The notes below the pieces were generated by a model. The model was not told where the DNA came from, did no database searches, and was given only the letters and a program-made list of their open reading frames with translations. The translations under genes and the position numbers were made by a program. This document shows, one piece after another, positions 5,799 to 11,991 of a stretch of DNA of 32,000 bases. Numbering within the stretch: the first letter of the stretch is position 1; every line of letters starts with the position of its first letter. The stretch spans positions 60,001 to 92,000 of the forward strand of contig NC_000917.1 in assembly GCF_000008665.1 (NCBI RefSeq), given 5' to 3'. This stretch comes from Archaeoglobus fulgidus DSM 4304. GTDB lineage: Archaea > Halobacteriota > Archaeoglobi > Archaeoglobales > Archaeoglobaceae.

Positions 5799-6485
5799 CT
5801 AACACTGAATTTCAAGAAGCTTCCATTTTTTGCCCTTTTTGATTCTGGCTTTGATGAGATAATACTTCCTTTCAAAGACGTTTCTGCCAGATTTGCCTGA
5901 ATATGGGTTTATTTGCTCGAATTTTGCCTTCTTGCTTATGTCTTTTACAGGATAAACAATATAGGGTTCTTTAGAGATTGCTTCCGCAAACTCTTTATCA
6001 GCTATTGCTTTAATTGCACTTTTTGGTGGCTCATTAATTTTCTCTATGCACTTGACGTAAAGCATCGAGTCACTAGAGCCGAGATACCTCAGCATACCAA
6101 AGTATTTGATTGCTATATCGATATCATCACAACCAATGAACAAGTTTACATCATCTGGGAAAAAGACATACTCTCTAACACCAAATGTTTTCTCGAAAGT
6201 TTCTAACTCCGTGGGATTCTTCTTTTTCTTCAGCCGCTTAATCAAAACCGAGTTAATTGCAATTTGTTCAGGCGGTAAAATTCGTATATCAGCATCCCGC
6301 ACAGCATAAAAAACACGTTCACCTTCAGCAACATTACCAGTTGTTCTTATGGCTGTTGCTACCAATGATAGCTTTATCGCCGACGGAGACGGTAATGGGA
6401 CACTTAAGGCGTACTGTGAAGAATAATCTGGTATGCGGTACGAAAAAAATGATGGGAAGTGTAATGTCAATTTTACCCATTGCAT
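5799..6485 (-). CDS. cas5: Cas5-family RAMP protein (last gene of the Cas operon)
   Basis: 228-aa ORF. The N-terminal VKLTLHFPSFFSYRIPDYSSQYALSVPLPSPSAIKLSLVATAI resembles the Cas5 N-terminal signature (beta strand, then lP.PS...G.L). Its position directly after cas7 supports the call. Confidence 0.7.
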   Translation of the reverse strand: MQWVKLTLHFPSFFSYRIPDYSSQYALSVPLPSPSAIKLSLVATAIRTTGNVAEGERVFYAVRDADIRILPPEQIAINSVLIKRLKKKKNPTELETFEKTFGVREYVFFPDDVNLFIGCDDIDIAIKYFGMLRYLGSSDSMLYVKCIEKINEPPKSAIKAIADKEFAEAISKEPYIVYPVKDISKKAKFEQINPYSGKSGRNVFERKYYLIKARIKKGKKWKLLEIQC

Positions 6486-6496
6486 CCTTGTTCACC

Positions 6497-7450
6497 TTAA
6501 AATTCCATTTTGTAAGGTTTATTTTTAATTAGCTCTCCTATTTTCATTGCAAACTCTGCAATACCATTGAACTCAGCAACTTTTAAAGAATCGTCTATGT
6601 TCTCCACTATAGTTTTTACTTCATCAACATAGTTACTCTTAAGGGGCGAGATTATGGGAACAGGTATTGGCTTTGTCGAGTAAACTATTACACCGCTGAA
6701 ATCTTCAACATGAGGCAATCGTGTGGTAGTCATTGCTCCTTCTGGGCGGGCAAACAGGAGCGGATACGCCTTCAATGCAAGCTGATATCTTCTTTCCCTT
6801 GCGTTATCGTTTGCATCATAGGTGTATTTATCCTGCTTTGCCTCATTCAGCCCAATTCTCCAAGGCTGAAAGACTGAAATGATTGCATAAACTCCAGATC
6901 TTGTTGGACGATGGTAAACCATCTGAGTTGAAACTCCCCCAACCTCTTCTTCACTCTCTTCAGTTTTCTCTCTTTTGCCTTTTTCACCAAGAGCGTGTCT
7001 TGCATGAGTGTGGATATCTCTATAAACCTCAGGGATTCCGAGAGCCCAGCCAAATTCTACTGTTGATTTTCTTGAGGCTGTAGGTCTTTCGAGAAGGAAG
7101 CCCTGAACATCGCAAATGTCACATGTATTTAAAGCCTGCTTTAATGCGTCTTCAACATCCTTAGGTGTTGCTTTCTTTGATTTTATCGCAAAATTGAACT
7201 TTTCTGGATTTAGCACCTTACATGCATCGCACAAGTTGTTTTTATCATCCAATGTCCACATTATTTCTGTATGAATATGTTTTAGCATCTCTCCAGAAAT
7301 TCCATCGGTTGTTACGGCCTTCTTTGTGTTCGGGTCTATTATTCTAACACTTCTCGGCTCTGTAACGTTACCAACAGTTCCTTCATTGTTCAAGCTGTGT
7401 AGCTGCCATGTAGCTCTCCCCAAAATGGCGATTTCATAAATTCCACTCAC
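6497..7450 (-). CDS. cas7: Cas7 backbone RAMP protein (Csa2/DevR-like)
   Basis: 317-aa ORF beginning YEIAILGRATWQLHSLNNEGTVGNVTEPRSV...TDGISGEMLKHIH. The HSLN.eG..GN and iSGe.lKH motifs match my memory of the Csa2/DevR Cas7 family. Confidence 0.8.
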   Translation of the reverse strand: MSGIYEIAILGRATWQLHSLNNEGTVGNVTEPRSVRIIDPNTKKAVTTDGISGEMLKHIHTEIMWTLDDKNNLCDACKVLNPEKFNFAIKSKKATPKDVEDALKQALNTCDICDVQGFLLERPTASRKSTVEFGWALGIPEVYRDIHTHARHALGEKGKREKTEESEEEVGGVSTQMVYHRPTRSGVYAIISVFQPWRIGLNEAKQDKYTYDANDNARERRYQLALKAYPLLFARPEGAMTTTRLPHVEDFSGVIVYSTKPIPVPIISPLKSNYVDEVKTIVENIDDSLKVAEFNGIAEFAMKIGELIKNKPYKMEF

Positions 7451-11109: not shown

Positions 11110-11269
11110 AAATCCCCCTGTAAATTCCCTCCATCAAATTAACAAACCCCAAAATCCCTGCATCAATAAACCAGTTACCGGTAAACCTAAGCTCATTAGA
11201 TTCGCCATATCCTGAATTGTCACATTCATTTTCTTTTCCGATGAAATCGTCAAGCGTAACTACCTTCAT
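11099..11269 (-). CDS. Unlisted 56-aa ORF wedged between cas6 and cas3
   Basis: Hand translation gives MKVVTLDDFIGKENECDNSGYGESNELRFTGNWFIDAGILGFVNLMEGIYRGIYGD. Its ATG overlaps the cas6 TGA (ATGA at 11266-11269), and its TAA lies 11 nt inside cas3. It fills the whole cas6-cas3 gap. Confidence 0.5.
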   Translation of the reverse strand: MKVVTLDDFIGKENECDNSGYGESNELRFTGNWFIDAGILGFVNLMEGIYRGIYGD

Positions 11270-11991
11270 ACCACCTTCACCATCCCAAACCCCATGCTGT
11301 TCTTAGAGCCAAAACCCGCCTTATAACCCACGTCAAGCAGCTCAGGACTACCTTCAGCCTTAAAAACCATTTCAACACATCTGTGAAAGGTGTCCTTAAG
11401 CCTGATGCGCTTCGCTTTAACGTTGAGAGGTTTCATGTGGAAGTCGAGGTTTTCCGGAGCGCTTTTGTAATATAGAACGTACTTCTTCACAAGATTCTGC
11501 AAGATAACCTCGTAAAACTTACTGTCTTTCGGATACAAATCAAAAATCCTCCTTCTGCCGTTCTCTCCGACTGAGGTAGATGCATATATGGGGCTGAGAG
11601 TTACGAACTTCTCCCTTCCCTTTACCTCCCTTTCTGGAAGAACAGACACCTCTGAGACGATGAAGTCAACACCGCAGATTCTTATCTCGGGCTTTGAGAG
11701 CAAACCCTCAACAAGACTGGCGGCAACCTCATTTCTGAGAGTGGAGAAGAAAAAGTAAGCCTCCTCGCAATCCGACACCATCTTTTCTCCCTCTATCCTG
11801 AACTTCCTCTTTGGAATGAAGAGCTTGCTGAAGGTGAAGAATTTCGGGACATCTGGCTTGTGCAGCTCAATGGAAAGCGAGGGGTCAGCCCTTTCAATAG
11901 CCCTGTAAATCGCCGAAGCGAGGTGATAAGAGTGGTTCAAGTCAATCTCGAAGCTGTCTGCAGGTGACAGGAGGGAGATTTTCAAACGCAT
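11266..11991 (-). CDS. cas6: Cas6 crRNA-processing endoribonuclease
   Basis: 241-aa ORF with the glycine-rich C-terminal RAMP loop GYKAGFGSKNSMGFGMVKVV that is typical of Cas6. It is the first gene of the operon. Confidence 0.8.
   Translation of the reverse strand: MRLKISLLSPADSFEIDLNHSYHLASAIYRAIERADPSLSIELHKPDVPKFFTFSKLFIPKRKFRIEGEKMVSDCEEAYFFFSTLRNEVAASLVEGLLSKPEIRICGVDFIVSEVSVLPEREVKGREKFVTLSPIYASTSVGENGRRRIFDLYPKDSKFYEVILQNLVKKYVLYYKSAPENLDFHMKPLNVKAKRIRLKDTFHRCVEMVFKAEGSPELLDVGYKAGFGSKNSMGFGMVKVV

Follow-up and report, generated by a model that had tools for sequence, protein, structure and literature searches.

Detached effector modules of CRISPR-Cas systems (short palindromic repeats, clustered and regularly interspaced, and the proteins associated with them) are documented in archaea. 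In Vestergaard et al. (2014; PMC3973734), 11 of 117 archaeal type I modules were classed as 'interference alone'. The same study describes two variants, VI-1 and VI-2, as rare euryarchaeal interference modules of five genes in which cas8 is divided into cas8′ and cas8″; their branches fall between subtypes I-A and I-G, their Cas8 lies outside the CDD and TIGRFAM models, and modular exchange is frequent. The I-A complex of Pyrococcus furiosus loads CRISPR RNAs (crRNAs) that stem from seven arrays, some of them far from the cas clusters (PMC4436667). Here, a 32,000-nucleotide (nt) stretch of the Archaeoglobus fulgidus DSM 4304 chromosome (NC_000917.1, positions 60,001 to 92,000; 'the window' below, with positions counted from its first nucleotide) was analysed. 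At 5799-11991 on the minus strand it carries the long-catalogued AF_0067–AF_0072 cas cluster; the finding is already known, and 'AF0070-like' was among the listed Cas protein families in 2006 (PMC1462988). The cluster is a I-A variant, a known kind of module. Judged from its sequence and from related loci, it is likely a functional interference module that has become detached from array and adaptation genes and is served with crRNAs in trans from distant arrays.

The operon consists of seven co-oriented open reading frames (ORFs), each overlapping or abutting the next, and all seven listed in the original prediction were found (Table 1). Translations were searched against the Pfam, NCBIfam/TIGRFAM and PADLOC profile sets, of which the PADLOC profiles are presumably derived from the CCTyper/Makarova set. 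The identities proposed for Cas6, Cas3, Cas8, the small subunit, Cas7 and Cas5 were all recovered by profiles; the 56-amino-acid (aa) ORF (orf56) between cas6 and cas3 proved to be no member of the module but what appears to be a cas8b remnant, described below. Cas5 matched TIGR02593 (4.7e-11, 42.3 bits) and PADLOC Cas5a PDLC01390 (2.8e-27), and passed TIGR01874 (Cas5a) marginally, with 23.4 bits against a cut-off of 23.05. Cas7 matched PF01905 (5.4e-76, 255.7 bits), TIGR01875 (5.2e-58, above cut-off) and PADLOC Cas7 (3.3e-69). It had been called Csa2-like, which stands at the level of the broader DevR family model, which it passes, but not at that of the Csa2 equivalog TIGR02583, which it fails (101.1 bits, cut-off 212.6).

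Cas3 (759 aa) is a single chain with an N-terminal superfamily 2 (SF2) helicase at residues 16-373 (TIGR01587 core at 31-373, 1.8e-59, 201.7 bits, cut-off 102.45) and a C-terminal HD nuclease (TIGR01596 at 563-748, 1.9e-22, 80.2 bits, cut-off 43.45; PF18019 Cas3_HD at 584-685), and its translation contains the motifs APTGAGKT, DEVH, QRAGRCAR, LHDLGK and AHHH. This helicase-then-HD architecture is common to all orthologues. The best PADLOC profile was Cas3a1 (1.2e-250). In the PDB the helicase matched best, by sequence (~1e-35), the chains 7r2k and 7tr8; their deposited name is CRISPR-associated helicase Cas3, and we take them to be the I-A Cas3 of P. furiosus. The PADLOC profile PDLC01710 (Cas3a1, 745 positions) aligns to Cas3 only from position 185. 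Orthologues are all 746-761 aa long, so Cas3 is not truncated, and the profile probably includes N-terminally extended members.

Cas6 matched TIGR01877 (2.3e-52) as well as PF21350 and PF01881. Its PDB relatives were 5yi6 (1e-46) and 3pkm/3i4h (3e-44), presumably all P. furiosus Cas6. In the alignment, Y29, H44 and K50 stand opposite Tyr, His and Lys residues of 3pkm, which by our assumed numbering are Y31, H46 and K52 of the P. furiosus enzyme; the C-terminal glycine-rich loop is also conserved. Y31/H46/K52 has been named as the catalytic triad of Cas6, in an enzyme family that cleaves 8 nt upstream of the spacer (PMC5965381). Having both the Tyr/His/Lys triad and the glycine-rich loop, the A. 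fulgidus protein is of the P. furiosus type and is predicted to be active.

The 350-aa Cas8 scored as Cas8a only (PADLOC PDLC01513, CAS-I-A effector_LS, 3e-169, 560.8 bits, full length) and had no match in Pfam, NCBIfam or PDB sequences. An AlphaFold model (predicted local distance difference test, pLDDT, 85; predicted template modelling score, pTM, 0.85) was compared with the PDB using Foldseek. The best match was chain 7tr6_C of the type I-A Cascade (3.2e-8), followed by the I-G effector 8b2x (2e-3) and a I-B Cas8b (1.6e-2). Sequence identity to the P. furiosus chain 7tr6_C is only ~13%, and the Cas8a family is rare, with 29 clusters at 90% identity among 5.8 billion proteins. Cas11 (120 aa) matched all 105 positions of the PADLOC Cas11a profile PDLC01488 (CAS-I-A effector_SS, 2.9e-57) and was unrecognised by Pfam and NCBIfam. 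It also matched the C-terminal part of a Cas8a profile (175-271 of 274; 6.4e-7) and a III-B Cas11 profile (1.8e-3). A PDB sequence search with Cas8, Cas7, Cas11 and Cas5 returned nothing significant.

The operon holds Cas3 together with the Cascade core of a type I interference module, namely Cas7, Cas5 and a large subunit. Within the PADLOC set, I-A profiles scored best for Cas8a, Cas11a, Cas5a and Cas3. Because of these scores, the closeness of Cas3 to 7r2k and 7tr8 and that of the Cas8 fold to 7tr6_C, the module was placed in I-A, and the view that it could not be assigned to one subtype was given up.

No CRISPR array was found in the window using Tandem Repeats Finder (TRF), a repeat finder or a k-mer chain scan. 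The best match in the window to the 30-nt repeat of the related loci had 11 mismatches, equal to that in shuffled sequence. Searches of the window by tblastn with Cas1, Cas2 and Cas4 of the closest complete relative gave chance matches only (E at least 0.02), Pfam calls for every gene of the window and of 10 kb past its right end included no Cas1, Cas2 or Cas4, and no remnants of cas1, cas2 or cas4 were found 5′ of cas6. The absence of array and adaptation genes from the window, noted in the original prediction, was thus confirmed, and the locus lacks the adjacent array and cas1/cas2 of a complete CRISPR-Cas locus.

Nine related loci were compared (numbered here with our own handles, L007 and so on), and all nine share the order cas6-cas3-cas8-cas11-cas7-cas5. 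Their sources are Archaeoglobales, A. sulfaticallidus, Methermicoccus, Methanobacterium, Methanocellales, Aenigmatarchaeota and one contig that was binned as WOR-3. Adjacent to the module are cas4-cas1-cas2 in six (L007, L008, L010, L012, L013 and L014) and arrays of 16 to 63 repeats in five (L008, L010, L013, L014 and L015). The arrays belong to one 30-nt repeat family, written as GTTGAAATCAGAC...GGATTGAAAG, with GTTGAAATCAGACCAAGATGGGATTGAAAG and GTTAAAATCAGACTATTGTAGGATTGAAAG as examples; most members end in ATTGAAAG and one in ATTGAAAC. Arrays and cas4-cas1-cas2 are thus neighbours of orthologues whose protein identity is 75-89%. As one or both of these elements adjoin the module in seven of the nine relatives, the operon family is an ordinary adaptive CRISPR-Cas system, of which the A. 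fulgidus copy is the detached exception. The closest complete relative is the A. sulfaticallidus PM70-1 locus (L014; including Asulf_01250 and Asulf_01251), with the same six genes in the same order. It is arranged as array(63)-cas4-cas1-cas2-cas6-cas3-cas8-cas11-cas7-cas5, so that array and cas4-cas1-cas2 lie directly 5′ of cas6. Nucleotide identity to A. fulgidus from cas3 to cas5 is 86%.

A metagenome scan for the family repeat returned environmental arrays only among the matches listed. Proteins flanking arrays with the A-variant repeat were not A. fulgidus proteins, and a full-text literature search for the repeat sequence returned nothing relevant.

In the proposed mechanism, Cas6 would process transcripts of arrays at other chromosomal sites, cutting 8 nt upstream of each spacer so that the 5′ tag AUUGAAAG remains. 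Cas7, Cas5a, Cas8a and Cas11a would assemble on the crRNA as a target-finding Cascade, and the single-chain Cas3, with its helicase followed by its HD nuclease, would degrade the target. New spacers would come through cas1, cas2 and cas4 of the other CRISPR-Cas locus of the genome. Supply in trans, the first of two alternatives in the original prediction, holds up as plausible because the host is reported to have arrays (three in strain VC16, five in strain 7324; PMC5732400), a Cas1 (UniProt O28401, PDB 4N06; PMC8610301) and ladders of processed crRNA (Tang 2002, as cited in PMC5965381 and PMC3432209), because P. furiosus offers a precedent, and because 'interference alone' modules have been catalogued. 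The host Cas1 was absent among the 120 best matches to A. sulfaticallidus Cas1, and for this reason is taken to be of another lineage. The module itself is judged intact because its proteins are full length (all six Cas proteins, compared with orthologues), because the Cas6 triad residues and Cas3 motifs are kept, and because ratios of nonsynonymous to synonymous substitution rates (dN/dS) against A. sulfaticallidus are low, at 0.03-0.11 from cas3 to cas5 with cas8 included (cas3 0.11, cas11 0.03, cas7 0.10, cas5 0.11).

At its 5′ end the operon carries the marks of a recombination. Residues 24-50 of orf56 match positions 3-29 of the PADLOC Cas8b profile PDLC01542 (2.2e-12), and residues 2-50 align to residues 3-51 of full-length proteins of 500-650 aa (87 matches, best 69% identity, E 2.6e-12), with up to 88% identity over residues 25-50, the most conserved N-terminal motif of Cas8b. 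Six such full-length proteins were tested as Cas8b and all six scored as such (1e-86 to 1e-166). None of the nine related loci has this ORF; in them cas6 abuts cas3 or toxin-antitoxin genes intervene. Going by these alignments, what is left in orf56 is the 5′ part of a type I-B cas8b gene, a recombination scar and probably not a functional subunit of the module.

The neighbouring cas6 points to the same kind of operon. The nearest Cas6 relatives are that of L136, at 81% identity, and a 60-aa C-terminal fragment in L018, which lies at a contig end and is 85% identical. In both loci cas6 is followed by cas8b-cas7-cas5-x-cas3, an I-B-type operon, and it is in I-B-type operons that the A. fulgidus Cas6 lineage is otherwise found. 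The same 4-nt overlap between cas6 and the next gene occurs in these Archaeoglobi operons, the operon type that donated cas6. They differ from the A. fulgidus module in that their Cas8b is full length, a separate Cas11 is lacking and the HD of Cas3 is N-terminal, and none of the A. fulgidus genes from cas3 to cas5 is closely related to theirs. DNA homology to the closest cas6 genes stops exactly at the cas6 stop/ATGA overlap, and the next 171 nt are orf56. At the same junction the guanine-plus-cytosine (GC) fraction drops from 0.47 in cas6 to ~0.39 (0.38-0.41 in orf56 and in cas3 to cas5); flanking genes have 0.44-0.51. Compared with A. sulfaticallidus, which has no 56-aa ORF, Cas6 is only 57% identical with saturated synonymous divergence (dS), versus 86-96% for Cas3, Cas8a, Cas11, Cas7 and Cas5. 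The contrast in GC between 5799-11269 and its flanks is consistent with horizontal acquisition. The methanogen Methermicoccus has proteins that are 80-92% identical.

It was considered whether orf56 is the N-terminus of the cas8b that stands behind the closest cas6 genes, and this was rejected: there is no DNA similarity to the Cas8 of L136, L018 or L137, and the protein match is weak and at motif level only. By this comparison orf56 derives from a Cas8b lineage other than those three. The L018 contig also carries an array of the repeat that is seen beside the I-A-variant module L013. The operon of L136 (ENA contig k141_14345) stands alone in a 13.5-kb contig with flanking housekeeping genes, another detached effector, in an Archaeoglobus-like genome.

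Taken together, cas6 and the first ~50 codons of a I-B cas8b would have been joined by recombination to the cas3-cas8a-cas11-cas7-cas5 block. In the closest relatives the corresponding position is occupied by cas6, cas2-cas1-cas4 and the array, and the array and adaptation genes were probably removed or bypassed in this event. The cas8b remnant is the only new detail of the locus, and is a concrete molecular trace of exchange between I-B and I-A-variant modules.

Other members of the operon family also carry insertions between cas6 and cas3. Two HEPN/nucleotidyltransferase pairs are inserted there in L012 (Methanocellales; 5925-7816), and one such pair with a duplicated 41-aa 3′ fragment of cas6 in L015 (Methermicoccus shengliensis; 5831-6622). 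The cas6/cas3 junction is a recurrent point of recombination and insertion in this family. The L015 copy also has the look of a decayed or recombined module further along (10275-13871), where Cas7 stops at about residue 252, there is no cas5, and another Cas3, of 784 aa and with N-terminal HD, comes next.

Some points weigh against a functional module served in trans. The dN/dS values reflect mostly the history before detachment. The two A. fulgidus strains have 5 differences across 4644-32000, which is uninformative on recent selection. The array repeats of the host, the 30-bp SR-1 repeats, are only presumed to match the 30-nt family of the relatives. Lastly, the order of events, whether adaptation genes were lost through the recombination or an already detached cassette was inserted, is inferred only.

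Of the other explanations, a decaying relic survives best and is nonetheless unlikely. Array and adaptation genes would have been lost by rearrangement, leaving the operon unused and on its way to pseudogenisation while other CRISPR-Cas loci give immunity. The truncated cas8b fragment inside the operon, the frameshifted HicA gene nearby and the visible decay of the Methermicoccus copy, with its truncated cas7 and missing cas5, would all suit such a course. Against it, the six cas genes are full length with intact catalytic motifs, gene overlaps of the translational-coupling type are kept, the operon is present in both sequenced strains, and dN/dS is 0.03-0.11.

It is improbable that the module is a functional hybrid in which orf56 yields a peptide that serves as an additional subunit or as an adaptor, such as a link between the I-B-type Cas6, or Cas3, and the I-A Cascade. 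The reading frame is open and overlaps both neighbours, by 4 nt between its start and the cas6 stop and again between its stop and the cas3 start, so that translational coupling is possible, and the most conserved Cas8b N-terminal motif is the part that was kept. However, orf56 occurs in A. fulgidus only, being absent from the nine relatives of the operon, and amounts to ~10% of a Cas8b. A working natural chimera, in which a Cas6 of I-B lineage feeds an I-A-variant Cascade with fused helicase-HD Cas3 from remote arrays and the translated orf56 peptide has a role of its own, such as that of an adaptor joining Cas6 or Cas3 with Cascade, has likewise a slim chance of being correct.

The second alternative of the original prediction was a co-opted, non-adaptive Cascade, recruited beyond defence (for example for gene regulation or mobile-element guiding) and independent of spacer acquisition; to our knowledge, co-opted type I derivatives (Tn7-like CRISPR-associated transposons, CASTs, and type IV) lack Cas3, which counts against it. 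The stand-alone layout and the toxin-antitoxin pair immediately downstream could be read in its favour, but it is very improbable and was left unsupported, as Cas3 retains helicase and HD motifs and Cas6 is intact, no transposase, TniQ or other partner is encoded within 10 kb, complete adaptive loci contain the orthologues at 75-89% identity, and arrays, Cas1 and processed crRNAs are reported from the host (PMC5732400, PMC8610301, PMC5965381).

Table 1. Genes and candidate promoter element of the A. fulgidus cas operon (positions in the window).
Feature	Position	Strand	Locus tag or record (basis)	Assignment
cas6	11266..11991	-	AF_0072 (by position)	crRNA-processing endoribonuclease (predicted)
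orf56 (56-aa ORF)	11099..11269	-	annotated in strain 7324 only	cas8b 5′ remnant (predicted)
cas3	8830..11109	-	AF_0071 (by position)	single-chain helicase-nuclease
cas8a	7800..8852	-	AF_0070 (exact-sequence cluster name)	Cascade large subunit
cas11a	7451..7813	-	AF_0069 (exact-sequence name)	Cascade small subunit
cas7	6497..7450	-	AF_0068 (by position)	crRNA backbone subunit, DevR/Csa2 family
cas5a	5799..6485	-	AF_0067, UniProt CAS5_ARCFU (exact-sequence name)	
candidate archaeal TATA box TTATATTT	12013..12020	-	read by eye from sequence	

Gene overlaps typical for translational coupling are kept in the operon. The start of cas8 was set at the ATG at 8852 and not at the TTG at 8873 chosen by the ORF lister, because all homologues open with MNRYF and the TTG lies too far upstream. 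The TATA-box candidate TTATATTT lies 21 nt 5′ of the cas6 ATG and is preceded by an A-rich stretch. It is a putative operon promoter, from which a leaderless or short-leader mRNA would be made.

The exact Cas3 sequence is present in A. fulgidus DSM 8774 (strain 7324; CP006577.1, ~60.6-62.9 kb) and in four further assemblies, among them that of run SRR606249, presumably a mock community with A. fulgidus DSM 4304 as a member. Identity over the window is 99.88% to strain 7324 and 99.995-100% to the remaining contigs. An unusual degree of conservation of the cas island between the two strains was considered and rejected: 1-21109 contains 25 differences, of which 23 lie together at 480-4643, and elsewhere the window is equally near-identical.

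For annotation, AF_0069 and AF_0070, which are carried as hypothetical or uncharacterised in public records, should be labelled Cas11a and Cas8a, respectively, and the 56-aa ORF is better annotated as a cas8b fragment than as a gene. Beyond annotation the locus is of little importance; it is a textbook example of exchangeable archaeal CRISPR-Cas modules and of detached effectors served in trans.

Toxin-antitoxin genes lie on both sides of the operon. At 12805-13038 (+), together with 12580-12780 (+), a HicB-like antitoxin gene precedes a HicA-like toxin gene with a frameshift after MKLPRDI. Beyond this point the toxin sequence continues in a different frame, and a 51-aa internal ORF alone is annotated; the gene is likely a pseudogene, or else carries a sequencing error common to several assemblies. 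On the other side, a pair of VapB (MazE/AbrB-type) and VapC (PIN) genes is found at 5075-5715 (-), 83 nt 3′ of cas5 and co-oriented with it. In L014, L008 and L010, too, cas5 is followed by PIN, VapB-like or other toxin-antitoxin genes, which are non-orthologous; a PIN-domain gene stands after cas5 in both A. fulgidus and A. sulfaticallidus.

RNA genes of the window comprise the archaeal RNase P RNA (26044-26278, -; Rfam RF00373, 148.8 bits), a 5S rRNA and two tRNAs, which mark the DNA as archaeal chromosome. A tyrosine-integrase gene (21844-22701, +) adjoins tRNA-Gln (21733-21805, +) and the free-standing 5S rRNA (21022-21142, -). Integration at tRNA-Ile or tRNA-Gln was considered and rejected: no tRNA-derived direct repeat of at least 14 nt was found in the window, and no integrated element could be delimited.

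Among known systems, the module resembles subtype I-G (formerly I-U) in the C-terminal HD of Cas3 and in having the I-G effector 8b2x as second-best match of the Cas8 fold. It differs in scoring 170.8 bits on the I-G Cas3 model TIGR02621, against a cut-off of 400; moreover, no Cas8u/Csx17 or Csb profile was matched, and cas5 and cas6 are separate and not fused. Subtype I-B, including its Myxan type, is characterised by a full-length Cas8b, and the sole cas8b sequence of the locus is the 56-aa N-terminal fragment. The doubts of the original prediction about the subtype had grounds, since Cas3 is fused with a C-terminal HD and Cas8 and Cas11 go unseen by Pfam and NCBIfam; the likeness to Myxan-type I-B lies in gene order only. 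The VI-1/VI-2 variants, of which Vestergaard et al. (2014; PMC3973734) have seven examples, are likened to the A. fulgidus module by description only, and that description fits. With subtype I-A itself (the P. furiosus Csa complex 7tr6; the archaeal Cascade of Sulfolobus and Thermoproteus) the module shares a Cas8a-type large subunit, a separate Cas11a, a Cas5a that is marginal on TIGR01874 and a Cas7 matching the Csa2/DevR family. It differs from I-A in the order cas6-cas3-cas8-cas11-cas7-cas5, in failing the Csa2 equivalog TIGR02583 and in lacking a Cas3 divided into Cas3′ (helicase) and Cas3″ (HD), a division that is usual in I-A though not universal. As its Cas3 is one polypeptide with both helicase and HD, the module was filed as a variant of I-A.

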